DNA from: a virus
Taxonomy: Duplodnaviria; Caudoviricetes
Virus record (IMG/VR): IMGVR_UViG_3300024275_000002
Span: 982 to 64,981 of that record
Strand: one strand, 5' to 3'
DNA: 64,000 nucleotides
Shown here: piece after piece, positions 1 to 64,000 of the stretch
Layout: every line of letters begins with the position of its first letter
Numbering within the stretch: the first letter of the stretch is position 1
Notes under the pieces: model-generated
Database searches by the model: none
Told to the model about the DNA's origin: nothing
The model's input: only the letters and a program-made list of their open reading frames with translations
Translations under genes and position numbers: made by a program

Positions 1-539
1 ACGCGGTCCCAAATGACTTGTGTATGTACGTCAAATAGATCCTTCATCTCCGACAGCATGGCTATCGATTCAGCCGCTTCGCGCGTGCAGCTGGCGGGCA
101 CTTTGTTCAGCACGGCGAGCACAGGCGTGTCCTTACCTTCAGCCCGCAGTTGGGTAATCAGCTTGCCCATCGTGCCGAGCGACCATGTGTCAAACTGACC
201 AGTGGTCACAGGCATGACTATCACGTCGGCCGCAGACGCAGCCCCACGGGTCTCCAGCCCGTCGTCACCCGGGCAGTCCACAATGACTGCATCCCATAGC
301 TTCGCCTCGGCGACCAGATCCTTGTAGATCTTGCCGGACAGATGGGCACGCGCAATGGAAGGCTCGATGCCCGACTCTGCGCGTGTCTGCACCCATGTAT
401 CGGCGCTCTTATTGACAGGATCAGTGTCGATCAGCTTGACGTTGAACCCGCTGCACGCATGTCTAGCCGCTAGGTTCGTCGATATGGTCGACTTGCCAAC
501 CCCACCTTTGCCATTCACTACAGCCACAATTACGCCCAT
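1..539 (-). CDS. parA: ParA/MinD-family partition ATPase (short type), C-terminus runs off the window edge
   Basis: Not in ORF track; manual translation from ATG at 539 gives MGVIVAVVNGKGGVGKSTISTNLAA (deviant Walker A KGGVGKST), LIDTDP and VIVDCPG (Walker B); RBS GGAGGG upstream. Confidence 0.92.
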   Translation of the reverse strand, partial: MGVIVAVVNGKGGVGKSTISTNLAARHACSGFNVKLIDTDPVNKSADTWVQTRAESGIEPSIARAHLSGKIYKDLVAEAKLWDAVIVDCPGDDGLETRGAASAADVIVMPVTTGQFDTWSLGTMGKLITQLRAEGKDTPVLAVLNKVPASCTREAAESIAMLSEMKDLFDVHTQVIWDR

Positions 540-569
540 GTTTCCCTCCGTCAAGTTATGGGTCGAGCG

Positions 570-660
570 GTCAGTATAGCACACGATAACTACAGGTGTA
601 ACTAGACGTGTATGTACGTCATAGATACGTCTGTATGTATCGATATGTCTGAGTATATAT
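570..660 (-). promoter_or_regulatory. parA promoter with repeat-rich tract
   Basis: Minus strand reads TGC-TATACT (extended -10); TGTAACTAG box at 597-604 overlaps the -35 position; GACGT-N6-ACGTC dyad 605-620; GTATGT-like repeats to about 660. Confidence 0.5.
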
Positions 661-978
661 GTGTGTCTTTATTGCAAGCTATAGGGCCGATGTTATGCGG
701 GGAGGGAAGGGCGGCTAGGAGCGTTAGTTGCAATTGAAGAATATATGTCAAACACCGGAGGTTAGGGCAGGGCGTCGGTGCCTCCCCGTGTGGACAAGCC
801 CGCTGCCCCCACCACAAGGGCGGGGACAGCCGCTACGCGGTCCCGGCCTTGACCACACTCGAACCTGACGCGCGCTGCGCGCTTGCCCCAATGAGAGAGA
901 AAGTCAAAGGCAGAAAAGCGTATGAACCAGATCAAGAGGGAAATTCCCGGAAACCCCTTATTCCATATAGAGGTCTAT

Positions 979-1036
979 GCAAAAATTTGCTAACACTTCG
1001 GCAAAATTTTGCCGAAACTTGCCTAAAAATTAGGCA
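979..1036. other. Cluster of palindromes upstream of rep, candidate plasmid origin or Rep-binding sites
   Basis: GCAAAAATTTGC (979-990), perfect 20-bp palindrome TTCGGCAAAATTTTGCCGAA (997-1016), TGCCTAA-AAA-TTAGGCA (1020-1036). Confidence 0.5.
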
Positions 1037-1147
1037 CCAATTCATGTAAACCCTCATGTCGGATTTATGCAAAAACTCGCGTTGATTGCAGCATTGATCG
1101 GTGCTTAAATTTCGGCTACGATACGTCCCGAACTCGTCGGAGGACTT

Positions 1148-1618
1148 ATGGCTACCGTGTTCAAGGGCAGTCGCCGCCTGCAGGATCTTGAGACGGGCGA
1201 AGTGCTTGACACACAACTCGTTGAGAAAACTGTCGGCGATGTCGGCTTCCACAAGATATGGCTGCATGAAATCCTTGATCTCGTCGACGAGGTGGGCAAT
1301 GCGAAGATGGTCGTGTTGATGTGGCTGCTGTCGCATGCCGATGCGCAGAACAAGATCTTTGCGACCGGGCGCGAGATTGCCGAAGGGGCGGGCACCAGCC
1401 CGCGTACTGTCACGGCGTTGATGGCCAAGTTGCAGGAAGCGAATATCATCACGAAGGTGCGGTATAGCGTGTGGCGGCTGAACCCCGACGTGATCTTCAA
1501 GGGCGACCACAACAAGCGCATGGCCGTCCTGATTCGCTACAGGGACGAGACGCAGGCTGACCTGTTCGACGAAGCACCTGCACCTGCAACTAAACCGCAT
1601 CTGAAGCGTGTAGCCTGA
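1148..1618 (+). CDS. repL: RepL-like plasmid replication/maintenance protein (winged HTH)
   Basis: 156 aa; HTH segment ATGREIAEGAGTSPRTVTALMAKL followed by WRLNPDVIFKG, typical of the RepL family; RBS GGAGGA. Confidence 0.75.
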   Translation: MATVFKGSRRLQDLETGEVLDTQLVEKTVGDVGFHKIWLHEILDLVDEVGNAKMVVLMWLLSHADAQNKIFATGREIAEGAGTSPRTVTALMAKLQEANIITKVRYSVWRLNPDVIFKGDHNKRMAVLIRYRDETQADLFDEAPAPATKPHLKRVA

Positions 1619-1782
1619 TGACTTCCACTCAAGTTTTCCTGCAGTACCTCGCCACGAGCGCCGGCTTCAAGCAGTTCGTAGCCAAGGGGCTGATGTGTGG
1701 CGGTGGCCGCACGTCATGGACCTACGCGGAGTGGCTGGCCATACATCGTCCCGACATCACCCCGCCGGAGAAGGCGTCGTGA
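1618..1782 (+). CDS. Small hypothetical protein (54 aa)
   Basis: TGATG overlap with rep stop and overlap with next start; MTSTQVFLQYL. Confidence 0.5.
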   Translation: MTSTQVFLQYLATSAGFKQFVAKGLMCGGGRTSWTYAEWLAIHRPDITPPEKAS

Positions 1783-2102
1783 AGATCGATCCGCGCGAGC
1801 GCATCGAGCTGGAGCACGCGCAGCGTATCTGCACGGCGAACGGCTACATCCACTACCGCCGGTTCCCGTCCGGCCGCGACGCGGCGATCTGCAAGCTCAT
1901 GTACACGTGGGCGATCTACGCGGATCTCACCGCGTGGGGCTACGGCGATCGCTGGTGCTTCAGCAGCTACGCGAAGGCGCTCACGGCGCTCGCTGAGTGG
2001 GATGGCGCAGACGACACGGAACCGCAGGGCTGGCACCGGCACCCGGACAGCGGCCGGCGTCGCGAAGATGGCGATCCTGCCCGCGAGACCGTCAACTTCT
2101 GA
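1779..2102 (+). CDS. Phage hypothetical protein
   Basis: GTG start overlapping previous stop; Trp-rich GYGDRWCF...GWHRHP. Confidence 0.65.
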   Translation: MKIDPRERIELEHAQRICTANGYIHYRRFPSGRDAAICKLMYTWAIYADLTAWGYGDRWCFSSYAKALTALAEWDGADDTEPQGWHRHPDSGRRREDGDPARETVNF

Positions 2103-2115
2103 AATCGGAGCGAGC

Positions 2116-2382
2116 ATGACCGAGAAGGTAAGCCTCACGAAGGAGATGCTGGAGCGCATCGACCGCGACTCCGACGTCCTGGCCCAAGCCGCTCAAATCG
2201 TTGCGCGCCTGCGGCCCGAACTGATCGAGCTGGCCAAGCGGCGCAGCGAGGCGTTCGAGCACGATGAGGGTTCGGCCAACTTCCTCGTCACCGCGATGCA
2301 CGACCTGCTTGGCGATCTCGCCGAGCACTTGGCCGAGGGATCGCGCCGTGGCTACGCGTACCTGAACAGCCAGCGCCATTGA
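2116..2382 (+). CDS. Hypothetical protein
   Basis: RBS GGAG, MTEKVSL; helical composition. Confidence 0.6.
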   Translation: MTEKVSLTKEMLERIDRDSDVLAQAAQIVARLRPELIELAKRRSEAFEHDEGSANFLVTAMHDLLGDLAEHLAEGSRRGYAYLNSQRH

Positions 2383-2535
2383 TGCGTTAGTAACTATTAT
2401 GTCAAGTCATTTCGACACGTGTAACAAACTGAAGATTCATGTACACTGAGGACTGCAAGCGATTTGGTCTCTCTTGCATTGCCAACCCCGCTCCCCCCGG
2501 GGCGGGACCATTGGCCCCCGTGTGGTAAGTTAAGC

Positions 2536-2568
2536 AGGGCAGCCTCCCAAGGGGCTGCCCTCTTTTTT
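2536..2568 (+). terminator. Rho-independent terminator
   Basis: AGGGCAGCC...GGCTGCCCT stem then CTTTTTT, at the convergence with the minus-strand operon. Confidence 0.85.
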
Positions 2569-2572
2569 GCCT

Positions 2573-2773
2573 TCACCAGTTGCCGCCCGCCGTGTCCGCG
2601 TCGCCGAAGGCGCACGGGCCACACAGCTGCGTGGGGTGAACCGTAGGCGTGCAGCCGCAGCACAAACACGGCGTATGCCAGTCCTTGTCGCCGTCCTCGC
2701 TCGGCGCGACCTGCTTGCCGGCGTCGCGCTCCTGCTGCATGAACTGGTAGCCTTGCTGACGCTTCTGGATCAT
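2573..2773 (-). CDS. Small Cys-rich hypothetical protein
   Basis: MIQKRQQ...CLCCGC...CGPC; start overlaps stop of upstream gene. Confidence 0.55.
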   Translation of the reverse strand: MIQKRQQGYQFMQQERDAGKQVAPSEDGDKDWHTPCLCCGCTPTVHPTQLCGPCAFGDADTAGGNW

Positions 2774-3084
2774 CACAGCCTCCCTGTCCGCAGATCGTCC
2801 AGCACCGCCTGAACGTCGTCGGCCGGCTCCTGCAGGCGGTCCTCGACAAGCTTGGCGTAGCCGATGATATCGTGCCAGTTGTCGAGGTAGTTCGGGTCGC
2901 CGTTCACGATGCGCGCCATCTTGTCCGCAATGACCTCCAGCGCCTGCTTCTGGTCGTCGGCCAGCCGCTCCCACCCGGGGTGCTTCCACATCGATCGCTT
3001 GATCGACTGCGCGACGATCGCGTGTTCGCGGAACTTGCCGTAGCGCTCGCCGCGCTGCGCCAGCGTTGCATCGATGTTTCCCAT
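2773..3084 (-). CDS. DUF6378-like phage protein
   Basis: RGERYG...KMARIVNGDPNYLDNWHDIIGYA motif. Confidence 0.75.
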   Translation of the reverse strand: MGNIDATLAQRGERYGKFREHAIVAQSIKRSMWKHPGWERLADDQKQALEVIADKMARIVNGDPNYLDNWHDIIGYAKLVEDRLQEPADDVQAVLDDLRTGRL

Positions 3085-3095
3085 ACGTCACCTCC

Positions 3096-6059
3096 TCAGT
3101 GCATCGTGAAATTGCCTTGGGTGGATGCCGGCTTCGACGGCGCGCCCACGAGCTGCAGGTCCGCGTCGAGCTTGCGGTTATCGATCAGCCAGCAGCGCGT
3201 CTGGCCAGTGCGATACACGGTGTCCGCGCCGAGCACCTTCTGCGCCGCGCGCTTCACGAGAATGCCGGACTCCTCCAGCTGCTTCTCGATCGTGCGGAAC
3301 GCGATGCGGTTCTCGGCGCAATACTTGAGCATGGCGCTGCGCGAGATGTACGTGAGGCCCACGTCGTCCTCCTTGCGCACCTCCATCTCGTCGAGCGGCT
3401 TCTGCACCACGTTGTCGATGTTCGAGCTGGACTTGGCCGACAGGATCAGCGTGTTGCGCAGCTTCGAGTCCAGGAACTGCGCGAGCAGTTCGGCCGGCGT
3501 CGTGCCCGACTCGCGGATCGTCAGGCGCTGGCTCACGAGCAGCTGCACCATCCACTGCAGGTCGTCCTCGAACGGGAAGTCGAGCAGCCCCAGCTCGGCG
3601 CAGATCTGCGCGGCCGTGTAGCAGGCGGCGACGGCCGCCGACCAGTAGCGTTCGGCCGATGCGTTCGACGATGACAGCAGGCGATCGATCTTCTCGACGT
3701 TCTCGATGAAGCGGTCGCGCACCTTGGCGTAGTGCTTGGCGACGTACTGCGCGAACAGCGGGCCGGCGAGCCCGTGGTGCTCGTTCAGCTCGCGCAGGAA
3801 CTGGTCGGCCGCCAGCTTCGCCTCCACGCCCGTGTCGACAAGGCGGAAGTCCACGGAGATGAGACGCATCAGGTGCGGGTCGAGATCCTTGCCTGTGGCC
3901 ATCATCGCGGAGATCGTGTCGGCGTTCGTCGTCATCGCGCCCATGGTGGCCCACGTGTCGAACCGCGAGGACATGATGCCGTCGTGCTGCAGCCGGCGCT
4001 TGCCTTCGCCCTGCGTGAAGTTCAGCAGGAACTTGCGCAGATCCTCGTTCTCGCGCTCGGTCACGTCGTCGATCAGGAACGGCAGCGAGTGCACGCAGCC
4101 CAGCGCCGAGTACAGCGCGTTGATCGTCGCGCCGTCCTTGTTGCCGTTCACCAGCAGCGACATCGGGTGCCCCCACACGCTGCTCATCGCCTTCAGGCAG
4201 GAGGTCTTGCCACGGCCGCTCGCGCCGCTCGCGCAGAACAGCACGCCGTTGTTGCCGGTGTCGTTCATGTGGAACAGGATCGAGCCGAACGAGTGGTAGA
4301 GGAACATGCGGTGCCCCTCGTAGCCCGGCCGGTTATAGAACGACATCGCGCGCTTCCAGCCCCCGAGCGTGCCGGTCGGCTTGAGCTTGCCCTTGGTGAC
4401 GTTCGCGACCGCATCGCTGGGCGAATGCGCCACTACTGTCCCGTCTTGATGCACGACACGATCGCCGAGCACGAACACCTTGTGCTCATCGTGCCACCCG
4501 AGGCGTTCGTACAGCTTCTCGCGCCCGGCCTCGCGGGCGAGCTTCTGCAAGTAGGCGGTCATATAGAGCTGCGTCATTTTGGATTGGTCCCCGCCGAGCA
4601 CGATGCCCTTCGAGAACAGGAGCTTGGCCAGACCCTTCGGGTCAGCCAGCAGGCCGAGCGGCACCGCGAAGTCACGCGGCTCCGGCGGTGCGCCCTTCTT
4701 CAGCGGCAGGTACACCCGCCACATGCTGCGCTCATCGATCTCCTGATCGATGCCGTTCTGCGCGCGGATCGCGAGCGGAAACAGATCGTAGGGGCACACG
4801 ACCTGCTGGCGCGGCCGGCCCTCGTTGTCCTCGGTCTCGATGATGACCGCGCCATCCTTGCGGCGCTTGTAGCCGGCCGGCGGCTCGGGCAGCGTGATCT
4901 CGGTTGGCGCGGCCGGCGCGTCGTCGCTGTTCGGCATCTCGTCGTTCTCGATCGCGACGCTGGGGGCCAGGATCTTCGGCGCGGGTACCGCCTCCACGTG
5001 GCGGCCGAGCTGGGCCGGCGACGTGAGCTTCGTCCAGTGCGGGCATGCTTCGCACACCGAACTATTCAGGGCGTGAAAATGATCGCATCGGGTCGGACCA
5101 GCGTGCCAGTTATTGATCTTCTCGACCATCGCGTTCGTGCTGAAGTCCGCGTGCCGATCGGACACGGACAGGCCCGCGAGCGTGCGCGGTTCGCAGAACT
5201 TGACGATGCCCAGCGACGCGCGCCACAGGGGCTCGCTGGCGCGGCTCCCATGCGTGGCGACCATCGCGCCGAGCTGGCCGCACGAAAAGACGATCCGGTC
5301 GAAATTCAGCGGATCGTTCGTGGTGCCGATGTTGTCCATGCCCTCCCACACGCCCGTGGCGGGCCTGCTGCCACCGAGGATGAGCGTAGGTGCCACCGAT
5401 GGCACGCGTGCCCCGTGGTCGGCCGCGTAGTCGGTCACGCGGTGGGAGAAGTCGACGAAGCTGACCACGCCGGCATCGCGGAGCACGCTTACGGGCGCAT
5501 TACGTCGGACGTTATAGCTGCCCGGCACCCGCAGCACGCGGGCCTGATCGGCCGGGACAGCCATGTCGGTGCGGAACCCCTCGGCCACGCAGATCGCCTT
5601 CAGGCGGTCGGCCACCGGCCGCCACTCGGCGACGGGCACCGCGATCGCCAGCGCCCAGTACGCGTGAATGCCGCCGCCTGAGTCGACCAGCATCGGCTGC
5701 GGCAGGCCGACCTTCTTGTAGAACGCCTTCAGCTCGCGCACCGCGTCGCGCTTGCTGGGAAACTTCTTCGGGTCAGTCGGGTCGACGTCGAGGTCCAGAT
5801 AGAAAGACCGCATGAACGCGACGTTGGCTTGCGTGCGCGTGCGGTACTTCTGCTTCTCGGCGTCCCAGTAGCGCGCCTCTTTGTACGTGCCCAATGCAAC
5901 GTACGCCGGCTTGCCCTCGAAGGTCAGGTGGTTGACGTGCGCGAGTGCGCTGTCGATGGTGGTGTGCGCGCGGTTGAACCAGCCACGCTCGGCGGGCGTG
6001 GCGATGAAGATGGTCCCCGAAGGAGCCAATACCTTTTCGAGGAATTCCCGCGTTGTCAT
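3096..6059 (-). CDS. Primase-helicase fusion (N-terminal AEP/RepB-like primase, C-terminal DUF927-type P-loop domain)
   Basis: YLDLDVD and SGGGIHAYW primase motifs; Cys/His cluster CDHF..C..CPH; Walker A GASGRGKT; likely start MTTREFL at 6059. Confidence 0.85.
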   Translation of the reverse strand: MTTREFLEKVLAPSGTIFIATPAERGWFNRAHTTIDSALAHVNHLTFEGKPAYVALGTYKEARYWDAEKQKYRTRTQANVAFMRSFYLDLDVDPTDPKKFPSKRDAVRELKAFYKKVGLPQPMLVDSGGGIHAYWALAIAVPVAEWRPVADRLKAICVAEGFRTDMAVPADQARVLRVPGSYNVRRNAPVSVLRDAGVVSFVDFSHRVTDYAADHGARVPSVAPTLILGGSRPATGVWEGMDNIGTTNDPLNFDRIVFSCGQLGAMVATHGSRASEPLWRASLGIVKFCEPRTLAGLSVSDRHADFSTNAMVEKINNWHAGPTRCDHFHALNSSVCEACPHWTKLTSPAQLGRHVEAVPAPKILAPSVAIENDEMPNSDDAPAAPTEITLPEPPAGYKRRKDGAVIIETEDNEGRPRQQVVCPYDLFPLAIRAQNGIDQEIDERSMWRVYLPLKKGAPPEPRDFAVPLGLLADPKGLAKLLFSKGIVLGGDQSKMTQLYMTAYLQKLAREAGREKLYERLGWHDEHKVFVLGDRVVHQDGTVVAHSPSDAVANVTKGKLKPTGTLGGWKRAMSFYNRPGYEGHRMFLYHSFGSILFHMNDTGNNGVLFCASGASGRGKTSCLKAMSSVWGHPMSLLVNGNKDGATINALYSALGCVHSLPFLIDDVTERENEDLRKFLLNFTQGEGKRRLQHDGIMSSRFDTWATMGAMTTNADTISAMMATGKDLDPHLMRLISVDFRLVDTGVEAKLAADQFLRELNEHHGLAGPLFAQYVAKHYAKVRDRFIENVEKIDRLLSSSNASAERYWSAAVAACYTAAQICAELGLLDFPFEDDLQWMVQLLVSQRLTIRESGTTPAELLAQFLDSKLRNTLILSAKSSSNIDNVVQKPLDEMEVRKEDDVGLTYISRSAMLKYCAENRIAFRTIEKQLEESGILVKRAAQKVLGADTVYRTGQTRCWLIDNRKLDADLQLVGAPSKPASTQGNFTMH

Positions 6060-6079
6060 GTGAGCCCCGTCAGGGTGGG

Positions 6080-6433
6080 TCAGGCGGCGATCGGCTTGGG
6101 CTGCGGCTTGTGCGTGCGCACCACGCGCTGCATTGCCTTGCATCGTTCTTTCACGGTGCCGGCAAGCGGCAGATCCTTGGCACGCTTAGCCTTGCGAAGG
6201 ATCGTGATGAGGCGCTTGATCTTGATGATCTTGTCAGCGTCGCGCGGGCGCGCTTCGCCGTACATCCAGCGATAGATCGTCACGTCTGAGACGCTGAGCA
6301 GTTCAGCGACGACCTCGACCGGTACGTTGCCGTCGATGATGAGTTCCGCCAGCGTCGGACCCAGGGCGTCGGGGTCGGCGATGCGCGCCTCGGCGATTTG
6401 CTTGAGCCGGGCGTCCGTCAAGATGCGAGTCAT
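6080..6433 (-). CDS. HTH DNA-binding protein (Cro/XRE-like)
   Basis: VEVVAELLSVSDVTIYRWMYG helix-turn-helix. Confidence 0.75.
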   Translation of the reverse strand: MTRILTDARLKQIAEARIADPDALGPTLAELIIDGNVPVEVVAELLSVSDVTIYRWMYGEARPRDADKIIKIKRLITILRKAKRAKDLPLAGTVKERCKAMQRVVRTHKPQPKPIAA

Positions 6434-6486
6434 GGAAGGTCTCCAGTGGTACTAAAGGGCGCGCGTGGGGGCGCGCCCGGCGAATA

Positions 6487-7719
6487 TTACTCGGTCTCGT
6501 CGTCCCAATCGTCGAGGAGAGAACTCACGCCGTCGCCAGCGGAGGCGGTTTCCACCACGGTCGGCTCAGGCGTCGGAGCCGGCGCAGCTGCGGCCGTTTC
6601 CTTCGGCTTACGCGTTGCCTTCGGCTTGCTCGTCGCGGCCGGCGTCGGAGCCGGTGCTGCCGCTGCCGGCGTTTCCGTGTCACCCCAGTCGGCGTCACCC
6701 TCCGACTCGGCTGCAGCCGCCGCTGCAGCTGCCAGACGTTGCGCTTCCGCCGCTGCCGCTGCCGCAGCTTCCGCCGCGCGCTGGGCCGCCGCCTTCGCCT
6801 CGGCCTTCTTCGCCGCAGCCTGCGCCTGCTTCGTGGCCTCGGCCGCCGCCGCTGCCGCTGCCTGCTCGCGCGCTGCCGAGTCGGCTGCATCGTCGTCATC
6901 GTCGTCGCCACCCGCTGCCGGCGCAGTCGGGATGCCCGTCATGCCGTCCGTGGCCGGAACGCCGTTGAGGATCTTGTCGATCACCTCGGCCTTCTCCTTC
7001 AGCACGGCCTTCGTGACTTCCGACTCGGTGTCGTCCAGCCAGCGTGATGCCTTGAACAGCAGCTTCGGGTACGGCGTGTCGTCGAACTTCACGATCGTCT
7101 CGACCATGCCGGTGTACGTCACGCCGCGCTGACGCAGGAAGTCCACGTACTGATCCCACGCGTACCAGCCTTGAGCGTTCTGCTTGGCCGCTTCCTTGTC
7201 CCACAGGCTCGTCTGCGGCAGCTTCAGCAGCATCGGCGGATGCTTGCCGATCTTGTCGCCGGACGGCACCACGGCAAGCCGCTTGTTGGCCGTGCACAGC
7301 GTCGTCGCCTTGTTGTCGTCGGTGATCTTCGAACCCTTGATCGCGTTCGGGCAGCTCGCGCACGTCGGGGCGCACGGCTCCTTGATCGAGGCGTCCGGCT
7401 TCTCGCCGTCCAGCGACGAGCAGATCGGTGCCTTGTTCTCGCCGTCCACGTACGGGCCGTAGTAGGCGCGGCTGCGGTTCGCGCGTGCGTTGAGCACGAC
7501 GAGGTTGATGATACGCACGCCGATGCGCTCGCCGGGGTTTTCCTTGTCGGGGCGTGTCACCAGCTTCTTCTCGCCATTCAGGACCGTGTACCAGTCCTTG
7601 CCCGGGAACACGAGCTGGTCGGTGGTGTTGCGCGCTGCGATGTTGGCCAGTTCGCCGAAGGCGGCCTGGATGTGCGCCGGCATTGCTGCGCTGGCGTCGA
7701 ACGGAATGATGTTAGCCAT
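6487..7719 (-). CDS. Putative single-stranded DNA-binding protein
   Basis: Position in the replication module; beta-rich N-terminus, Ala-rich linker, acidic tail LLDDWDDETE. Confidence 0.6.
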   Translation of the reverse strand: MANIIPFDASAAMPAHIQAAFGELANIAARNTTDQLVFPGKDWYTVLNGEKKLVTRPDKENPGERIGVRIINLVVLNARANRSRAYYGPYVDGENKAPICSSLDGEKPDASIKEPCAPTCASCPNAIKGSKITDDNKATTLCTANKRLAVVPSGDKIGKHPPMLLKLPQTSLWDKEAAKQNAQGWYAWDQYVDFLRQRGVTYTGMVETIVKFDDTPYPKLLFKASRWLDDTESEVTKAVLKEKAEVIDKILNGVPATDGMTGIPTAPAAGGDDDDDDAADSAAREQAAAAAAAEATKQAQAAAKKAEAKAAAQRAAEAAAAAAAEAQRLAAAAAAAAESEGDADWGDTETPAAAAPAPTPAATSKPKATRKPKETAAAAPAPTPEPTVVETASAGDGVSSLLDDWDDETE

Positions 7720-7737
7720 GATGTGTACCTCGTGGAG

Positions 7738-8301
7738 TTACGCCGCCAGCTCGGCAGCATTCGGGTTGAAACCAAGCGCCTTGTAAATGCAGCGCAGGTG
7801 AAGCGCCTGCGACAGCGCATCGTCGAGCGCGTTGTGATGCGTGCCGTAGCGTTCCAGCTTCGCGTGCTGCGCGCCCGGCAGGTTCTTCACCGTGCGGTAG
7901 CAGCGCTCCTTGTGCCACGCCCACGGGATCTGCTTGCCGCACACCTTGTACGCAGCTTCCAGCAGGCCCGCATCAAAGCGCGCGCTGTTGCCCCAAAAGC
8001 TCATCGGCCGCGAGCCCCACCAATCGGTGAAGGCATCGAGCGCCAGCGGCAGCGTCACCGCGTCCGGGTGGCTCATCACCATCTGCGCCGCCTCGCCCTG
8101 ATCGCACCAGAACTTGATCGCGCCTGCGTCCGGCCTCATGCCCAGTTCGAGGCACGATTCCAGATCGATCGGCTGGTAGAACAGATCCATGATCGGTTCG
8201 TCGTCGAAGTTGAAAGCAACCGCGCCGATCGACAGGAGCGGGGCGTACGGCTTGGTGCCCATCGTCTCCAGATCGACCATCGCGTTCAATGCGTTTTCCA
8301 T
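7738..8301 (-). CDS. DEDDh 3'-5' exonuclease/exoribonuclease
   Basis: MVDLET, GNSARFD, HNALDDA catalytic motifs. Confidence 0.85.
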   Translation of the reverse strand: MENALNAMVDLETMGTKPYAPLLSIGAVAFNFDDEPIMDLFYQPIDLESCLELGMRPDAGAIKFWCDQGEAAQMVMSHPDAVTLPLALDAFTDWWGSRPMSFWGNSARFDAGLLEAAYKVCGKQIPWAWHKERCYRTVKNLPGAQHAKLERYGTHHNALDDALSQALHLRCIYKALGFNPNAAELAA

Positions 8302-8303
8302 CG

Positions 8304-8747
8304 TCAGTCTCCCTTACGTACGCGCATGACGCGCTCCTCGAACTTGTTGAGCCCGGGCGGCAGAGCGTTATCGTTCGCCGCCATGTAGTTCTTCACCTGC
8401 TGGACCGCGACCCGCCGTTCGAAGAAAACGAACGGGTGCTCTTGCTTGCGCAGCCACGCCTCCCACGCCACGTCATCGGCGATCGACAGCTTCATCGTCT
8501 TGTCCGTGTACGTGGTGCCGTAGACCGTCTTGAAGCCCTGCACCTTCTGCTCGTCGGCCACCTTCAGCAGCAGGTTCTCGATGCGCTCCATGATCCGGTT
8601 GTACTGCGCTTCTTCCTCTGCCCACACCTTCGCGCGAGCTGACTTCTTTTCGCGCGTCTGGACGTACCGCTTCACTAGCTGGTCGGGCGTAAGGGCCGCC
8701 AGCGAAGCGAGGGCCGCCTCGAACCGTTCTTGCATGGTCATGTTCAT
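8304..8747 (-). CDS. Conserved phage replication-module protein
   Basis: RBS GAAGGAG; coiled-coil N-terminus, GFKTVYGT motif. Confidence 0.7.
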   Translation of the reverse strand: MNMTMQERFEAALASLAALTPDQLVKRYVQTREKKSARAKVWAEEEAQYNRIMERIENLLLKVADEQKVQGFKTVYGTTYTDKTMKLSIADDVAWEAWLRKQEHPFVFFERRVAVQQVKNYMAANDNALPPGLNKFEERVMRVRKGD

Positions 8748-8770
8748 TTGGTCTCTCCTTCAGCAACAGA

Positions 8771-8800
8771 TGTAACTAATATGCTCGCAATCCTAACTAA
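8771..8800 (-). promoter_or_regulatory. TGTAACTAA box in the intergenic region upstream of the 8747 operon
   Basis: Exact TGTAACTAA 8771-8779 plus CCTAACTAA at 8792. Confidence 0.6.
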
Positions 8801-8835
8801 ATGCAAACCGGCCGAGTGCGCCGCAGCCCCCGGGT

Positions 8836-10446
8836 TTACGCTGCGATCCTCACTTGCGCGAGGTCGAGCCCCAGCTCTCGTTTGTACAGATCCAGCATCG
8901 ATTCCTGCGTGATGCGCCGCCCTTCCACCATTGCGTAGATCTCTTGCTCGAAGCGGTTCGCCGCGATCCGGGCGATCGTCATCTTGCGCTTCTGGCCGGG
9001 GCGGTTGATGCGGTCCATCACCTGCATGCTCTGGTCGTTCGAATAGATCGGCGCGTAGAACACCACCATGTCCGCGTCGGTCAGTGTCAAGCCGTGCGCC
9101 ATCACCTTCGGGTGACACACTGCCTCGGTCAGCGACGCGTCATTGCGGAAGTCATGCCAGATCTTGTCGCGCTTGGTCTGGCTCACGTCGCCGTTCACCA
9201 CCTCCACGCGCCGGCCGTCACCTCGCAAGTTGTGCCAGATCCGCAGCTCCTCGGCCAGCGCCCGCGCGATGCCCTTGAACGGTACGATAATCAGCACCTT
9301 CGAACTCGACTGCTCGATCAGCTCCTGCAGCACGCGCAGGCGCGGCTTGTGGTCGATCGTGATGTACGTGCCGTCCTCGCGCTTCACCGCACCGCAGAGG
9401 ATCTGGCGCAGCTTGATGATCTTGATGGCCGCGTTCGCAGCCGTGATCTTCTCGCCCTGCGCCTCGGCCACGAGGTGATTTTTCATGGCCAGATAGGTGC
9501 GGCCCTGCTCCACCGACAGTTCGGTCGACCGGTTTAGGAACGTGACGGGCGGTAGCTGCAGGCAGTCGGCTTTCTTGAACCGGATCGCAGGCTGCAGCGC
9601 GTTGTACGCCAGCTCGTTGCTGCCCGGGCGCGGCACCCACTTGTGCTGACTGACCTGATACATCGTCTCGCGACGCCACTGGCTGAAGAACTTCGGCACC
9701 CGCGACTTGTCGACGAGGCGCGCCAGCGCCCATGCGTCGGTCGGTGCGGTCGGGCACGGCGCACCCGAGAGCATCCACAGCTTACGGCCCTGCGTGATCT
9801 GTTCCAGGATCTCGTACTGCTCGGTCTGGCCGTTGCGGTAGTCGCTGCACTCGTCGACGATCACCACGTCGATGTCCTTGCGCGCGAGCAGATCCTTCTT
9901 CAGCACCTTCAGGCCGGCCGGGTTGATGATGTAGAAGTCCGCCGGCTTCGACAGGCGGTCGCGGCGGCGCTCGGCGTCAGCATGCAGGATCATGCCGGTG
10001 CGGTGCATGCACACGGAGAAGATCTCCTGCAGCCACGTGTCCTTCAGCGTCGACAGCGGGGCCACGATCAGCGCGCGCTTGATCTTGCCGAGGCGCATCA
10101 AGTAGTCGGCCGCCCACAGCACGCACGCCGTCTTGCTGGTGCCCATCTCGTTGAGCACGAAGCAGCGCGAGTGCAGCGTGAGGAAATCCGCCGTCGCGTA
10201 CTGGTGGTCGAACACGCTCTCGAAGCGGGCGGGCCGGGGCCAGTCGTAGTAATAGCGGATCGGGCTCGGTGCCTTGATGCCCATGTTGCGCAGCACCTTC
10301 ACCACCGCGAGGTTATGCGGCACGGCGATGTTGTGCCCGTCATAGTCGAGCAGCTTGTGGTGCGACGGGAAAATGCCCATCAGCTGCGCGAGCGTCTTGG
10401 GGCGCACCTTCAGCACCAGACTCTTACTTGGCTTGTGGACGATCAT
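8836..10446 (-). CDS. SNF2/DEAD-like SF2 helicase
   Basis: EMGTSKT (motif I), VIVDECS (II), LSGAP (III), HGLTL and QVMDRINRPGQ (V/VI). Confidence 0.9.
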   Translation of the reverse strand: MIVHKPSKSLVLKVRPKTLAQLMGIFPSHHKLLDYDGHNIAVPHNLAVVKVLRNMGIKAPSPIRYYYDWPRPARFESVFDHQYATADFLTLHSRCFVLNEMGTSKTACVLWAADYLMRLGKIKRALIVAPLSTLKDTWLQEIFSVCMHRTGMILHADAERRRDRLSKPADFYIINPAGLKVLKKDLLARKDIDVVIVDECSDYRNGQTEQYEILEQITQGRKLWMLSGAPCPTAPTDAWALARLVDKSRVPKFFSQWRRETMYQVSQHKWVPRPGSNELAYNALQPAIRFKKADCLQLPPVTFLNRSTELSVEQGRTYLAMKNHLVAEAQGEKITAANAAIKIIKLRQILCGAVKREDGTYITIDHKPRLRVLQELIEQSSSKVLIIVPFKGIARALAEELRIWHNLRGDGRRVEVVNGDVSQTKRDKIWHDFRNDASLTEAVCHPKVMAHGLTLTDADMVVFYAPIYSNDQSMQVMDRINRPGQKRKMTIARIAANRFEQEIYAMVEGRRITQESMLDLYKRELGLDLAQVRIAA

Positions 10447-10452
10447 TTGGGT

Positions 10453-10761
10453 TCACTTGGGAAACAGCAGCAGGAGCACGAGCGTTTGTTCCATCCGTGC
10501 CAGCTCATCGTCGTTAGACACAACGAACACGAAGCCGCCGGCCTTCTTCATCTCGGCGATCGTGACTTGCTGACGTGGGGTGGGTTGCTTGCCTGGAGCC
10601 TTGGTTTCTACCGCAATGAAATAGCCACCGCCGCAGTTGATGAAATCCAGCGACGGTTCTCCGTATCCGTTCAATACCGGCATGTGCACGTACAGGCCGA
10701 ACCTGCGCAGCACCGCCTTCACCTTGTCCTTTACTTTCCCTTCGGGGGTGCGCCGACTCAT
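10453..10761 (-). CDS. VRR-NUC domain nuclease / resolvase
   Basis: TPEGKVK...GEPSLDF...AVETKAPGKQPTPRQ. Confidence 0.85.
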   Translation of the reverse strand: MSRRTPEGKVKDKVKAVLRRFGLYVHMPVLNGYGEPSLDFINCGGGYFIAVETKAPGKQPTPRQQVTIAEMKKAGGFVFVVSNDDELARMEQTLVLLLLFPK

Positions 10762-11438
10762 CGCGCGCCGCGACCGTGGTATTCGCAGCTCGTCACCGGG
10801 CAATGCTTGCGGCACAGGCCGCTGGGCTTAGCCACGAAGATCCCGCACTTGAACGCCTTCAGGTAGTCGCGCAGCTTCGGCACCAGCGAGTCCCACATCT
10901 CCTCCATCTGCGCGCGGGTGAACGTCTCGCGATCCTTCGCCGACTCGTCAAACCCGTACTGCAGCCAGTGGAATGCGCAGTGCACCGTGTTCACTTCCGG
11001 ATGGCAGTGGAACACCGTCAGCGCAAACACGATCAGCTGCTGCATGTCCTTCTTCCGGTTCTTGCCCGTCTTGTGGTCGTCGACCCACGCCACGTCGCCG
11101 TCGATCGTCAGCACGTCGATGATCGCCCGGCACCACACATCCTTCGCGAAGAACTCGGTCGGCTGCAGCTGCTTGTTCAGCGCGTAGCGGCGCTCCACCA
11201 GCGTGCGGCCCGCCCGATCGATGAAGCCCTGCGCGTACGCCGCGTACAGGCTCATGTTCGCCGGCAGCGGCACGCCCGCGCCGATGTGCTTCTCCAGCGC
11301 CCGGTGCACTTCATCGCCCCACAGCGACGCTTCGTTCTTCGTTTCTTGAAAGTGCTTGAGCACCTTCACTTCTTCGTACTGGCGCGGGCAGGTGTCGAAC
11401 GCCTGCAGCGCCGAATGACTCCATGCGAGCGGCTTCAC
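10758..11438 (-). CDS. PD-(D/E)XK (RecB/Cas4-like) exonuclease
   Basis: WSHSAL..FDTCP, IIDVL..VDDHKTG, terminal LCRKHCPV..C. Confidence 0.85.
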   Translation of the reverse strand: MKPLAWSHSALQAFDTCPRQYEEVKVLKHFQETKNEASLWGDEVHRALEKHIGAGVPLPANMSLYAAYAQGFIDRAGRTLVERRYALNKQLQPTEFFAKDVWCRAIIDVLTIDGDVAWVDDHKTGKNRKKDMQQLIVFALTVFHCHPEVNTVHCAFHWLQYGFDESAKDRETFTRAQMEEMWDSLVPKLRDYLKAFKCGIFVAKPSGLCRKHCPVTSCEYHGRGAR

Positions 11439-11704
11439 TTCATCCCCCCTTTGGGGTTACGCGGAAAGCTCCGATTCTTGTGGGGCGTTTCCACGCGCAA
11501 ATTCTTCGGATCGGTCTGTGCACCGCCCTTGATGAGCGGCACCTTGTGATCCACATCCTTGCCGTCGTGCGGCTTGACCATGCCCAGCTTCTCGGCCTCA
11601 CGACGAGCGCGTTCACGAGCGGCGTGTCTCGGGCCATCGCCCCGCGCCTTCGCGGTTGCTTCCTCGCGTTTATAGTTACGTTTGTAATTCGGAGAACTAG
11701 GCAT
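11435..11704 (-). CDS. Small HNH endonuclease-like protein
   Basis: DVDHKVPLIKGG...NLRV...KNRS. Confidence 0.75.
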   Translation of the reverse strand: MPSSPNYKRNYKREEATAKARGDGPRHAARERARREAEKLGMVKPHDGKDVDHKVPLIKGGAQTDPKNLRVETPHKNRSFPRNPKGGMK

Positions 11705-11705
11705 G

Positions 11706-11882
11706 TCAATTCTCGCTGGTGGTTCGGATGTCAAAAACACGCTTAACCATGTACGGCACGAAGTTGTGGTCGACGTACACGGTGCCGTCCTCGGCGCGGA
11801 GTACGGCTCGGTGACTCACCTTGTCGTACTCCAGCACCTCGAACGTCGTGCCCTTCACCTTGCCGACGATGAACGTCGTCAC
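11706..11882 (-). CDS. Small hypothetical protein (58 aa)
   Basis: Manual translation from GTG: TTFIVGKVKGTTFEVLEYDKVSHRAVL; RBS GGAG; overlaps upstream stop. Confidence 0.55.
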   Translation of the reverse strand: MTTFIVGKVKGTTFEVLEYDKVSHRAVLRAEDGTVYVDHNFVPYMVKRVFDIRTTSEN

Positions 11883-12082
11883 GCGTGCTCCGTCGCCGGC
11901 AGCACCTTCTCGTCCACCTTCACCACCTTGAACCCGTACTTGTTCAGCATCTCGTCCGTCAAGGCACGATCGAACGGCACGCCCGTATCACCGAGCAGCG
12001 TGCCAATCCGTGTGTCCTTGTTGAACTTGATGATCTTGAAACGCAGCCCGGGTGCCTTCGTCGATTCCACGTAGAGCGCCAT
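11879..12082 (-). CDS. Small hypothetical protein
   Basis: RBS GGGAGAG; ORF track. Confidence 0.6.
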   Translation of the reverse strand: MALYVESTKAPGLRFKIIKFNKDTRIGTLLGDTGVPFDRALTDEMLNKYGFKVVKVDEKVLPATEHA

Positions 12083-12110
12083 GACACTCTCCCGAAGTCC
12101 AGATCGTTAC

Positions 12111-12449
12111 TTACAGTGCGGCGCGGATGTGCGCGATGAGATGGCGCACTTCGTTCCACGCGTCACCACCGAGCTGCACAGCCAGCTCCTCGATGCGCTG
12201 CAAGTACGACTCGGCCGGGTGGGCTTCAGAAGGGGATTCGGGTGATGCGTCCGACGAACCCGAATCCGGCGCGGCCACTAGCGTCAACGGCGACGTAGCA
12301 GCCGCTTCGACGTTTCCCTCCGGGGCCGGGGTCGGTTCGTTGGTAGGCTCCGGTGGCGTCGCGTTGGCAATCCAGTCCGGCTCCGGCTCCGTCGAGGCCG
12401 GCGCGGCGTCCGTCGCCGGGGTTTCGTTCTGGTTCAGATCGTCCGACAT
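12111..12449 (-). CDS. Acidic Pro/Ala-rich hypothetical protein
   Basis: RBS AGGAG; low-complexity N-terminus and short helical C-terminus. Confidence 0.6.
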   Translation of the reverse strand: MSDDLNQNETPATDAAPASTEPEPDWIANATPPEPTNEPTPAPEGNVEAAATSPLTLVAAPDSGSSDASPESPSEAHPAESYLQRIEELAVQLGGDAWNEVRHLIAHIRAAL

Positions 12450-12490
12450 AGTACGAACTCCTAAATATTGGTCGCAAAAAATTTAGCCCG

Positions 12491-12682
12491 TCACACCTGC
12501 ACGCCGTGCTTGCGGAGCGCCTTACGAGCGAGATTGACGGCGGCAAAATCAGCCTCCGTCAACGGTGATCCATCGACTCGTTTGCCCTGCTTCATGTGCT
12601 CCATTTTCACGTCGTACAGCCGCTTCAGTATAGCTGCAAGCGTTGCGGGATCGTTAGGAATTCCAACTTGTTTTTTACTCAT
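12491..12682 (-). CDS. Small hypothetical protein
   Basis: RBS GAGGG; follows polA. Confidence 0.55.
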   Translation of the reverse strand: MSKKQVGIPNDPATLAAILKRLYDVKMEHMKQGKRVDGSPLTEADFAAVNLARKALRKHGVQV

Positions 12683-12694
12683 GACTTTCCCTCG

Positions 12695-14602
12695 TCAGTG
12701 CTTCGCAAGACCATAACGCCTGTGCATGCCACCCTCGCTATTCAGCGGCAAGTCAGGTGCCCACACGGGCGGAATCTTCATCTTCGCCATCAGGCGCTCG
12801 AACGCCCACGGTGCCTCAAACTCATGTGCAACAAAGACACCTTCGTCGTGCACGCTGTGCACCCACCACACCGGGCGGCCCTTCGCTTCCTGAGCAAACG
12901 ACAGGCACTGGCCGAGCACGATCAGGCGAGCCAGCGCCTGCACGATGTTCTCGACCATCTTCGCGCCGTAGATCTTCTCGCGCGACTTGCCGTTCCAGAA
13001 CGTCCACTCCATGTATCCGGTCTCGGGGTCTTTCTCCCGCTTCAGCTCCGGGTACAGGATCTTCAGGCCGCCGGGCAGTACGATGCCGTCCACACACGTC
13101 TTAACTACTCCACGGTAATCCACGTTCACGCCAACCTGTCCACGCGCGATGCACGCGAGTGCTTGGTTGCAGCGGTCCCACAGCGCCGTCACGCGCTTGT
13201 GCGAGTTGCGGTAAATCTTGCACACCTCCTCGCACAGCTTCATCTCCAGCACCAGCGGCTTGCCGTCCTTGCCCTTCGCCTCGCGGCGCACCGAGACTTG
13301 GAACATCAGCGCGCCCTGCCCGAAGCCGAACGCCAGCTTCACGCGCTTGCCCATCTGCCGCTCGTCCGGGTCGAGCGCCTTGTCGATCGGCCGGCCGTAG
13401 ATCTTCTCGGCCATGATGCAGTAGATGTCCGGCCCCTCGCCACGGTCGTAGCGCCGGTACGCCTCGATCATGTCCTCCTGGCCGGCGAGCCAGTCGAGCA
13501 CGCGCGCCTCGATGTTGGAGCTGTCGCCCACCACGATCGCGTAGCCCAGCTCAGCCATCAACGCATCGCGCAGCTTGCTGCCGCGCTTGAGCGCCTGCCA
13601 GTTGATGCTGTCGCCTGCCGACAGCCGGTGCGTGCCGCTCGCGCCGCTGTACTTCAGGTAGATCGTGGCGAGCCCGCGCCGCGACATGGCGATCAACCGC
13701 TCGGCACCCTTCTCCGCGATCGTCGTCTTGTTCTTCAGCCGGGCCTCGACCAGCACCTGCACGCGGAAGTCCGGATGCTCCTGCAGCTTCTGCATCGCCT
13801 CGTCCGTCTTGGCGAACGCATACGTCAGCGGCGCGATCGGCTCGCGCTCGGCCGGCGGCTTCTTCAACCACGTCGGACTGATCTTCATCGGCGGGTCGAC
13901 CCCCAGCGCCTTGAGCGCCGTGGCGAACCGCTCGTTGCTCATCAGGTCGTCCTTCGAGACGCCAGCCTCCAGCATGAGGCGTTGCTTTTCTTCCCGCAAG
14001 TCGGCCGCATAGTCACTGAGCATCTGCGCATCCAGCTGCACGTGCGGCTCGGTGAACATGCGGATGATCTGGTCGTTCAGCTGCAGCTCCGACTTGCTGA
14101 AGTGCGGGGCCATGCGCATGAACAGCTCGTACGTCAGGTCGACGTCGTTGCAGCTGTAGCGGCCGTACTGCGCGAGCCGTGCCGGCCCGAAGTCCGCGTA
14201 GTGCATGCCACGCACCTTCAGCACTTCGTCGCCCTTCTTGCCGATGCCGTACCGCTCGGCCAGCTTGTCGAGCGACAGCCTGCCGTTCGCACCATGGAGC
14301 GCCCGCGCCATGCCCAGCGTATCGAGCCAAAGGCGCGGGAAAATTCCGTAGTGGTACGAAGTAATGAGCCCGTCAAAATGGGCGTGGTGGCACAGCACGG
14401 CCTTCGATTCCAGCTTCAGCGACTTCAGATGCTTGCCGATCTCCGGCCGGGGCACCCAGTACGTGCGCTCGTTATTCACACGCACGCTCACCAGGATCGC
14501 CTCGAAGCGCGGGTCACGGACGTACGCTTCCGTCGTCATCGACGACAGCGTGTAGCCGTCGCCGTAGAACGTCTCGTAGTCCAGCACGACCAGATCCATC
14601 AT
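12695..14602 (-). CDS. polA: Family A DNA polymerase with N-terminal 3'-5' exonuclease
   Basis: LDYET and HHAHFD exonuclease motifs; DSSNIEAR (A), KRVKLAFGFG (B), VHDE (C). Confidence 0.93.
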   Translation of the reverse strand: MMDLVVLDYETFYGDGYTLSSMTTEAYVRDPRFEAILVSVRVNNERTYWVPRPEIGKHLKSLKLESKAVLCHHAHFDGLITSYHYGIFPRLWLDTLGMARALHGANGRLSLDKLAERYGIGKKGDEVLKVRGMHYADFGPARLAQYGRYSCNDVDLTYELFMRMAPHFSKSELQLNDQIIRMFTEPHVQLDAQMLSDYAADLREEKQRLMLEAGVSKDDLMSNERFATALKALGVDPPMKISPTWLKKPPAEREPIAPLTYAFAKTDEAMQKLQEHPDFRVQVLVEARLKNKTTIAEKGAERLIAMSRRGLATIYLKYSGASGTHRLSAGDSINWQALKRGSKLRDALMAELGYAIVVGDSSNIEARVLDWLAGQEDMIEAYRRYDRGEGPDIYCIMAEKIYGRPIDKALDPDERQMGKRVKLAFGFGQGALMFQVSVRREAKGKDGKPLVLEMKLCEEVCKIYRNSHKRVTALWDRCNQALACIARGQVGVNVDYRGVVKTCVDGIVLPGGLKILYPELKREKDPETGYMEWTFWNGKSREKIYGAKMVENIVQALARLIVLGQCLSFAQEAKGRPVWWVHSVHDEGVFVAHEFEAPWAFERLMAKMKIPPVWAPDLPLNSEGGMHRRYGLAKH

Positions 14603-14874
14603 GTCCCCCGGCGGGCAGCTTCCAGCATGCGCTCCAGCAGGTTCTGGTGCGGCTCATACGAGACCCCCAGTGCCTCTCGCAGCATGTCCAGCTCGGAGCG
14701 GGCATCGCTCAGCATCTCGCGCACCATCGTGGCCATCTCCGGCAGGTCATGCCAGCTGTGCATGGTGCCCGGCTCCGGCTCGCCCTTCAGGGCGTTCGCG
14801 GTGCGTTCGAGCAGCGTCGACAGACGATCGTTGAGTCCGGCGAACTCGTCCTCTGGCAGATCAGATTGTCCCAT
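14599..14874 (-). CDS. Hypothetical protein
   Basis: Coupled overlaps at both ends; MGQSDLPED. Confidence 0.55.
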   Translation of the reverse strand: MGQSDLPEDEFAGLNDRLSTLLERTANALKGEPEPGTMHSWHDLPEMATMVREMLSDARSELDMLREALGVSYEPHQNLLERMLEAARRGT

Positions 14875-16735: not shown

Positions 16736-16773
16736 ACTAATTCTCCGGCGGCCAGAACGGCCGCGCAAGCGAT

Positions 16774-28379: not shown

Positions 28380-28389
28380 AGTCACACTC

Positions 28390-63927: not shown

Positions 63928-64000
63928 CAGTGCACCGAACCGCGAGGAGGCAGGAAGTTGGTCATGCGGCCCTCCGCGAGATCCCAGTTCATGAACTCAA

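Follow-up and report, generated by a model that had tools for sequence, protein, structure and literature searches.

Among the cluster A mycobacteriophages (RedRock, Alma, Miko and Jeeves), it has been shown that about 20% possess parABS in place of an integration cassette, at a collinear position, that prophages of this type are extrachromosomal and that RepA or RNA origins adjoin par (Dedrick 2016; Wetzel 2020, PMC7157519). In elements of the P1 group, two replicase families have been found at one position, matching IncY and p0111, and it has been reported that few phage-plasmids are podoviruses (Pfeifer 2021, PMC7969092). For crAssphage (Carjivirus communis), a RepL phage-plasmid proposal has been made in a paper that interchanges the roles of P1 RepA and RepL (PMC10983915). 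The present work concerns an island of partition (par) and replication (rep) genes on the phage genome held as IMG/VR record IMGVR_UViG_3300024275_000002 (64,981 bp), of which bases 982-64,981, a stretch of 64,000 nucleotides, constitute the window; coordinates below refer to the window unless given as genome positions. The original prediction, made from the window, was that this phage lysogenises as a circular plasmid, and this view is now supported by a closed genome, by the position of the island at the integrase locus of an integrated relative, by co-divergence of par with the phage backbone and by the exchange of RepL and TrfA replicon cassettes. We consider it quite probable that the phage is temperate and is kept as a low-copy circular plasmid, instead of integrating, in a host that is probably Paraburkholderia-like.

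The resemblance to cluster A lies in the alternation of an integration cassette with partition and replication functions at a collinear position, in the placement of the origin or initiator beside par (divergent in the RepA phages) and in the occurrence of several unrelated origin types, allowing compatibility. The phages of cluster A, however, are actinobacterial siphoviruses with ParA/ParB (type Ia-like) and RepA- or RNA-based origins whose plasmid state has been shown by experiment, whereas the present phage is a proteobacterial podophage with its own PolA, a type Ib pair of ParF-like ATPase and ribbon-helix-helix protein and RepL or TrfA replicons, and is known from sequence alone. With P1 and the P1-g1 group it shares separate plasmid and lytic replicons, the alternation of replicase families at one locus and a RepL-family gene, but P1 is a myovirus whose plasmid replicon consists of RepA/oriR with ParAB, and no backbone genes common to P1 and the present phage were seen: a tblastn search with RepL against 50,697 phage records returned three records only, none of them P1-type, and the capsid has its relatives among podophages of the N4-gp56 type. 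In P1 itself, RepL is the lytic initiator and is under C1 control. CrAssphage is likewise a podovirus with its own replisome, RepL genes, no integrase and a proposed plasmid persistence, but no partition system has been described for it, its host belongs to the Bacteroidota and its polymerase is of another type; as a complete par operon and an integrating relative are present here, the case for a plasmid state is stronger than that of crAssphage.

Genome closure and the partition system

The record carries an exact 127-bp repeat at its ends, is classed in IMG/VR under direct terminal repeats and has a CheckV completeness of 100%. The same phage is represented by an independent ENA contig with a k141_ name (64,995 bp), which has another breakpoint and reads through the ends of the record, and by a Logan contig (64,884 bp) in which the breakpoint differs again. 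All three assemblies fit a circle of 64,854 bp if their ends overlap by 127, 141 and 30 bp, respectively; the 127-bp overlap alone was observed directly. Because subtraction of these overlaps yields 64,854 bp in each case, the repeats at the ends have the appearance of overlaps left by the assembler on a sequence that is circular or circularly permuted. The circularity of the contig, a check of which had been suggested with the original prediction, is therefore borne out by one unit of identical length in three assemblies. No host flank occurs on any of these and no contig with a host joint was found. Contig depth was 52 in X1, a 458-Mb soil metagenome, and 11.6 in X2; a depth of 52 would fit active growth, but as no per-host copy number can be derived from these values they were used for neither lifestyle. 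A further run, X3, in which a small share of the words was present, in short contigs at 90-99% identity, was not used for habitat or presence.

Six-frame hidden Markov model (HMM) searches of the complete genome, and not only of the window, revealed no match to tyrosine integrase (PF00589), to rve transposase (PF00665) or to protelomerase (PF16684), the family expected of an N15-type linear prophage, and the assemblies close as a circle; for serine recombinase (PF00239) there was only a sub-threshold match of 13.8 bits, located inside the helicase. The absence of an integrase, which had been noted for the 64-kb window, thus extends to the complete genome, together with the absence of host flanks. 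With regard to the Ravin/Pfeifer definition of phage-plasmids, the genome combines a full phage gene set, a plasmid-type initiator with its origin and a partition system, and has no integration function. No Rfam family was detected in the window, and megablast of window positions 1-8000 against the 50,697 phage records retrieved nothing.

The island itself spans about 4.9 kb, from window position ~62,355 through the contig junction to 2382, and its GC content is 46-59% compared with 64% for the whole genome (about 64-70% for the remainder). The module had been described as ParA plus RepL; both of these stand, but its extent had to be corrected, as it runs round the contig ends and includes a partner of ParA. 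The parA gene lies on the minus strand at window positions 1-539, with its ATG at 539, and runs off the window start (genome 858-1520, the last 41 codons at genome 858-981). Its 220-aa product matches Pfam AAA_31 (5e-15), CbiA and MipZ, which are ParA/MinD-type P-loop families, as well as phrog_164, 'ParA-like partition protein' (2.5e-34). The protein has a deviant Walker A motif, KGGVGKST, at residues 10-17 and no N-terminal DNA-binding domain, and the nearest solved structures are those of TP228 ParF (4dzz and 5u1g, 206-214 aa), features that identify it by homology as a predicted type Ib (ParF-like) partition ATPase. A comparison of parA with that of a sister phage, described below, showed 13 differing codons, 12 synonymous and one non-synonymous, indicating that the gene is under purifying selection.

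The partner gene (genome 551-871, in the 981 bases before the window, minus strand) encodes 106 aa and overlaps the stop end of parA by 14 nt. Its product matches no Pfam or PHROG family, only 11 relatives were detected among 1.8 billion representatives, and a word-based homologue search with it retrieved its own cluster only. In every case with upstream sequence present, these homologues directly follow parA with the same short overlap, and in their alignment, which was too variable for the design of search patterns, a basic N-terminal peptide and the 45 C-terminal residues are conserved. AlphaFold2 modelled residues 51-102 with a pLDDT of about 90 as an extended segment followed by two helices (62-75 and 79-102). 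When this model was compared with known structures by VIA-align, ribbon-helix-helix proteins made up the majority of the 50 highest rows and every one of the best matches, including omega, ParG and pCXC100 ParB (Z 5.6-3.3, rmsd 1.4-3 Å, 44-52 residues). On this structural model, ParA and its ribbon-helix-helix partner may be read as a type Ib partition system. In this regard, the arrangement resembles TP228 ParF/ParG and pSM19035 delta/omega, in which a small Walker-type ATPase is followed by a small ribbon-helix-helix protein with a flexible, basic N terminus, and it differs from them in that its partner belongs to none of the catalogued families, with relatives in such small number, and in having a centromere that is a candidate only.

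Replicon exchange and the integrase locus

On the other side of the control region, repL (1148-1618, plus strand) encodes a 156-aa protein that contains a winged helix at residues ~55-105; it matches PF05732 at 1.1e-32 with a score of 113.3 bits, the cut-off being 20.3, and the match covers positions 7-140 of the 164 in the model. Thus, the prediction of a ParA at the window edge divergent from a RepL-like initiator, for which HMM searches of both proteins had been suggested, holds for a 220-aa ATPase and a 156-aa initiator that both match their families and lie 608 bp apart. Three AT-rich palindromes, 22 bp apart, at 976-1043 and a fourth related copy at 1066-1080 are candidate RepL sites. 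The sequence from 880 to 1147 aligns as DNA with the regions upstream of repL in several P22-like viral contigs, the RepL proteins of which are 71-76% identical, and the palindromes of those contigs keep their register with a changed, co-varying sequence. RepL is also 62-64% identical to RepL in two Paraburkholderia genomes. A plasmid counterpart exists in Apa386Bp6 of Acetobacter pasteurianus 386B (NC_021978), where a RepL 65.5% identical to the present one is preceded by AT-rich palindromes phased at ~22 bp and followed by a small ORF, and where it is the only annotated rep gene, although the PLSDB gene table may be incomplete; unlike the phage, Apa386Bp6 is a 6.5-kb plasmid that carries a RelE/ParE toxin and has neither ParA nor phage genes.

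The repL gene is part of an exchangeable replicon cassette on the plus strand (740-1771, 1032 bp), comprising an origin leader, the phased palindromes, repL and a 54-aa ORF (1618-1782) that is translationally coupled to repL and falls almost wholly within the cassette. The sister phage is represented by a contig that comes from an independent study of the rhizosphere and matches window positions 1-733 and 1772-16,776 collinearly, with 1214 other letters between them; the blastn breakpoints are 739 and 1772, and the flanks are 97-99% identical between the two phages. In the same position, the sister phage has a 1208-bp TrfA/iteron cassette, encoding a TrfA of 277 aa (PF07042, 8e-25); six or seven 21-22-bp iterons, a perfect DnaA box and a near-copy of that box lie ahead of the gene. 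The sister phage therefore keeps parA and exchanges the RepL cassette for a TrfA one, the origin of which is by its sequence layout a predicted RK2-type oriV; as such an origin has a DnaA box, replication by the host replisome is implied. Two ORFs of 107 and 88 aa (1779-2382, plus strand), which also lie 3' of trfA in the sister phage, belong to the backbone, and a hairpin resembling a terminator (2536-2561) closes the rightward unit, which there abuts the end of the early operon. Like RK2 and other IncP plasmids, the sister phage and two further clade members possess an initiator of the TrfA family, 5-7 direct iterons of 17-22 bp, DnaA boxes and an AT-rich stretch; unlike RK2, their TrfA proteins are short (259-277 aa), distant from the family model (88 bits) and encoded on phage genomes. 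Of the 9 papers found to contain both 'phage-plasmid' and 'TrfA', none names either in its title or abstract.

Further clade members were found via homologues of the partner and via an Rz alignment. One of them, a 64,053-bp contig (L034/L035), encodes a primase 60%, a ParA 53%, a partner 47% and an Rz 60% identical to those of the present phage, together with a TrfA that is 34% identical to that of the sister phage and has its own iterons and DnaA box. A second one, G409 (62,905 bp, CheckV completeness 100%, no integrase), is collinear genome-wide, with a capsid 85% and a PolA 64% identical, and its TrfA, 49% identical to that of the sister phage, is accompanied by six iterons and a DnaA box. 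On two other contigs (L036/L037 and L038), parA and the partner gene adjoin the same lysis cassette. Next to these lysis genes, parA and a small ribbon-helix-helix gene have thus been retained in no fewer than three diverged relatives, and further TrfA/iteron variants are present in two of these. Among the diverged members, identity amounts to 41-53% for ParA, 36-47% for the partner, 51-60% for Rz and 58-64% for the primase; since the divergence of ParA and its partner keeps pace with that of the backbone and their position is the same in at least four lineages, an old vertical inheritance is indicated. From these comparisons, par appears to have co-diverged with the backbone and the replicon appears to have been exchanged several times. 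None of the complete island-bearing genomes that were searched has an integrase.

One relative, G408 (IMGVR_UViG_3300047160_002654; loci L061 and L141), lacks the island and has a PolA 71%, a helicase 73%, a primase 64% and an Rz 60% identical to those of the present phage. Its primase and DUF6378 genes are followed by a gene for a tyrosine integrase of 388 aa (66 bits) and then directly by an 844-aa RNase R gene, the product of which is 90-91% identical to RNase R of Paraburkholderia oxyphila and of Paraburkholderia sp. Ac-20340. As the integrase gene adjoins a Paraburkholderia-like RNase R gene, G408 can be regarded as a prophage integrated in a Paraburkholderia-like chromosome, and its integrase sits at the locus that par/rep occupies in the other members; there is no tRNA gene beside it. 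Because G408 is integrated and the island lies at its integrase locus, the clade would be temperate, with a lysogeny module at one locus that is either an integrase or par/rep. The survey of related phages that accompanied the original prediction as a possible check thus found parA kept in the sister phage and the diverged members, rep swapped and an integrase at the same locus in G408.

G408 is only 40.6 kb long (CheckV 64%), contains no terminase-to-capsid homologues in the parts compared (about 6.3 kb of its middle part lay outside these) and could represent a prophage with a deletion or an error of assembly; on the far side of Rz lie a gene for an Adhesin_E-like lipoprotein and other ORFs for secreted proteins. 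Among the 80 viral contigs of the Rz alignment, G408 and G409 were the only clade members, the others being unrelated prophages with a common lysis gene, and a search with the primase alone gave no relative among viral contigs. A capsid search of 401 Burkholderiales genomes gave six matches, two of them on large contigs that have only portal and capsid in common with the present phage and are uninformative on the clade.

Phage backbone, control region and alternative lifestyles

The backbone contains a replication block on the minus strand (3096-14602), the presumed lytic replicon, with a DUF927 primase-helicase (3096-6143), an exonuclease, an SNF2-type helicase (8836-10446), a PD-(D/E)XK nuclease and a PolA-type polymerase (12695-14602). 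The virion and lysis genes, on the plus strand, comprise large terminase, portal, an N4-gp56-type major capsid protein (36945-37982), head-closure and tail proteins and a holin/SLT/Rz set. Of the own replisome and virion set originally described, Pol A, primase-helicase and the N4-gp56-type capsid were confirmed, but a bacterial-type single-stranded DNA-binding protein (PF00436) was not found in the six-frame searches of the complete genome. A virion protein of 2245 aa (47445-54182, plus strand, phrog_30335) is 23-60% identical to large proteins of Pseudomonas phage Rollin, a Massilia plasmid and clade members, and at the position matching its gene a virion RNA polymerase of 2270 aa has been proposed for StenR_269, which electron microscopy shows to be a podovirus and which has an N4-like capsid (PMC10747016).

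Rollin (OR577172) is the nearest cultured relative of the backbone, with a terminase 44%, a portal 38%, a capsid 47%, a primase-helicase 29%, a helicase 44% and a PolA 34% identical, and differs in having no ParA (AAA_31), RepL or integrase. StenR_269, DES1 and vB_Pun_Y3 have only capsid or portal in common with the present phage, and these three also lack ParA, RepL and integrase. As Rollin possesses the replisome without Rep or Par, the primase-helicase and polymerase of the present phage presumably suffice for lytic replication. It had been remarked earlier that phages with this type of capsid and replisome form no standard phage-plasmid group, which agrees with the lack of the module in the nearest cultured phages and with the small number of podoviruses among phage-plasmids (PMC7969092).

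The leftward operon continues beyond the partner gene and its gene order, read through the junction in the independent assembly, is parA followed by genes for 106, 166, 78, 77, 81, 74, 89 and 128 aa, ending against the Rz gene. The third gene (166 aa, genome 54-554, minus strand) lies mostly before the window, with its 3' end in it, and the distal genes occupy 62355-64000 on the minus strand and wrap round the contig ends. They include a 78-aa BrxR/CapW-type winged helix (63691-63927, minus strand) and a 74-aa HTH_3 regulator (63004-63228, minus strand; HTH_3 and phrog repressor families), and such small HTH_3 and winged-helix regulators are the only candidate lysogeny-control genes seen in the complete genome. 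The sister phage differs in this operon by two further small indels or replacements, the 128-aa gene (62394-62737) being replaced by a 79-aa gene and the 81-aa gene (63231-63462) being absent.

Between parA and repL, which diverge across 608 bp, positions 540-739 form a backbone part that is common to the sister phage. It contains a sigma70-like parA promoter on the minus strand (602 to 573; -35 GTTACA, 18-nt spacer, TG-TATACT) and, at 608-645, short repeats of the GTATGTA/ATACGTC type that are candidate binding sites of the partner, as centromere or operator. An exact 14-nt repeat joins positions 608-621 to positions 20-33 in the 3' part of parA, for which about 0.005 matches would be expected by a rough estimate; the copy at 20-33 would fit a second candidate binding site of the partition partner.

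Near-copies of a 9-nt box, TTAGTTACA, face parA (597-605) and rep (724-732), both within the common backbone, and the last six bases of the one near parA are the -35 element of the parA promoter. The box, TGTAACTAA/TTAGTTACA, has 21 sites with at most one mismatch where 1.55 are expected (none of 100 shuffles reached 21). Exact copies occur at 8771, 18429, 27160, 27183, 28392, 28904, 28947, 28999, 30134 and 30192, and the copies cluster mostly in a control region at 27.1-30.2 kb; the box precedes several early and late units, oriented with the transcription of the unit downstream. An exact copy also lies beside trfA in the relative L034 (L034:4690), and the box is rare in G409; it was not treated as a clade-wide element, the exact TGTAACTAA box being rare in the relatives compared. 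It may be a promoter element or the operator of a lineage-specific regulator. Given its near-copies at parA and at the rep cassette, rep expression may be wired into the phage programme, which fits copy-number control as well as a lytic role. A second sigma70-like promoter on a box near-copy (2396-2425, minus strand; GTTACA, 18-nt spacer, TG-CATAAT) faces leftward into the rep operon's 3' end; transcription from it could run antisense to, or converge with, that of the small ORFs and repL. A gene for an HNH endonuclease (phrog_374, 27864-28385) stands alone at the edge of an 830-bp non-coding control region.

In the mechanism that we propose, the phage DNA would circularise after infection, and RepL would bind the 22-bp-phased palindromes 5' of its own gene and start replication dependent on the host replisome. 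The leftward operon would provide the ParF-like ATPase and the 106-aa partner with its basic N-terminal tail and C-terminal ribbon-helix-helix, which, by analogy with type Ib systems, is expected to bind the short repeats of the control region and to segregate the copies. The HTH_3 protein and the BrxR-type winged helix are, speculatively, candidate silencers of the lytic genes, and lytic growth would proceed via the primase-helicase and polymerase of the phage itself. More tentatively, and as a possibility that we consider less likely than not, the region between the primase block and the lysis genes could act as a plug-in slot that receives either an integrase with its att site or par with one of four or more iteron replicons (RepL and the three variants of TrfA). 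Since the cassette lies directly behind a TTAGTTACA copy, one phage regulator could then set both plasmid copy number and lytic entry, with a hand-over from a Rep using the host replisome to the PolA replisome.

Low-copy plasmid maintenance is favoured because no recombinase is present, because par is intact and under selection, because initiator and origin are of plasmid type and because the relatives have DnaA boxes. Several observations nevertheless weigh against it. All holders of the sequence are contigs of soil or rhizosphere metagenomes, and circularly permuted virion DNA gives a circular assembly too. The Z scores of the partner are modest for so small a domain, Foldseek E-values were not significant, and the 608-645 repeats are a candidate centromere only. 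No S24 peptidase was found in the complete genome by the six-frame searches, hence no classical CI-type repressor, and the only regulator of that kind is the 74-aa HTH_3 protein. Moreover, a backbone of this type, with N4-like capsid and own polymerase, is usually virulent, as StenR_269, DES1 and Rollin, which have neither integrase nor ParA, illustrate.

An alternative view, with which the lack of an S24-type repressor agrees, is that the phage is virulent or only pseudolysogenic, with RepL or TrfA serving lytic origin recognition in the manner of RepL/oriL of P1 and with ParA and its partner positioning or distributing replicating DNA in a carrier state instead of keeping a repressed prophage. 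It is established that P1 RepL serves lytic replication, and Alteromonas podophages that appear to be virulent have RepL-like genes but no ParA, so that RepL alone is insufficient evidence of a plasmid state; in addition, the near-copy of TTAGTTACA just 5' of the rep cassette faces it, and as the box precedes early and late units, rep could belong to the lytic programme. We nonetheless regard this view as unlikely, for the replisome of Rollin works without Rep or ParA, the perfect DnaA boxes of the TrfA/oriV variants point to the host replisome, a partition system selected across a diverged clade has no known purely lytic role, and the position of the island is that of the integrase in an integrated relative, in a clade that would be temperate.

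It could also be argued that the island is functional plasmid DNA carried as cargo, a plasmid fragment of recent capture that either serves the incompatibility-based exclusion of resident plasmids or rival phages or simply hitch-hikes, and is no maintenance system of the phage itself. The GC content of the module, below that of the rest of the genome, agrees with this, as does the mobility of its parts, RepL and ParA being found on unrelated P22-like contigs, one of which also has an integrase, and a ParA-partner-Rep_3 set on a lambdoid contig. A recent capture is, however, difficult to reconcile with the identities of ParA and partner, which fall with those of Rz and primase, with the same position in at least four lineages, with the purifying selection on parA and with the lack of an integrase in the searchable complete island-bearing genomes, and the cargo explanation is consequently held to be very improbable. 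That the phage integrates by an unrecognised recombinase, or by host Xer at a dif-like site, with par/rep as remnants, can be given hardly any credence, since, even if many ORFs belong to no family and a missing HMM match is no proof of absence, four recombinase, transposase and protelomerase families stayed below threshold in six frames of the complete genome, the circle closes in three assemblies with no host joint, and the par genes are intact and under selection.

Related modules and implications for the clade

Modules related to this island occur on other elements as well. P22-like contigs of about 41.7 kb (L009, which is IMGVR_UViG_3300046694_000138, and L006, L008, L010 and L011) carry parA followed by a codirectional repL, the product of which is 71-76% identical to the present RepL; L009 carries a P22 coat protein, and the contig of L006 has a tyrosine integrase. 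By gene content, the ParA and RepL module is thus present on a second, unrelated phage backbone. A lambdoid contig (L040, Logan SRR29078200_4470, 3682-9872) has genes for a CI-like S24 repressor, a P22_Cro-like protein, ParA, a homologue of the partner, Rep_3 and a Prim-Pol/DUF3987 primase, and appears to be another phage-plasmid-style module using the same partner family. An N4-gp56-type capsid 54% identical to that of the present phage is encoded on NZ_CP024609.1 (L003/L004), an 87-kb plasmid of Massilia violaceinigra B2 on which ParA/ParB, two integrases and a 16.7-kb PLxRFG gene are found as well, and one 46% identical on NZ_CP103299.1 (L031-L033), a 54-kb plasmid of Endozoicomonas gorgoniicola PS125. 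Both plasmids are candidates for phage-plasmids or carrier-state phages in pure cultures.

As phage-plasmids, module swaps and the alternation of replicases are all known, the finding represents no new kind of system. What is new is an uncultured, Paraburkholderia-associated lineage of N4-capsid podophages with its own PolA, an uncatalogued family of ribbon-helix-helix partners, the interchangeability of TrfA/oriV and RepL replicons on a phage, and natural near-isogenic phage pairs differing in their replicon cassette (RepL versus TrfA). Most of the phage-plasmids known so far are sipho- and myoviruses of entero- and actinobacteria, and to these the clade adds soil and rhizosphere N4-capsid podophages with their own replisome, on a backbone that tends to be interpreted as virulent. 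Such phages will be assigned to the wrong lifestyle by predictors that rely on integrases. The compact candidate replicons and the small partition cassette are potentially useful in Burkholderiaceae genetics. In conclusion, these near-isogenic pairs, together with relatives that differ in their whole lysogeny module, integrase versus par/rep, constitute a comparative system for the switching between integration and the plasmid state, for the avoidance of incompatibility by replicon exchange and for the coordination of a host-dependent replicon with a phage replisome.

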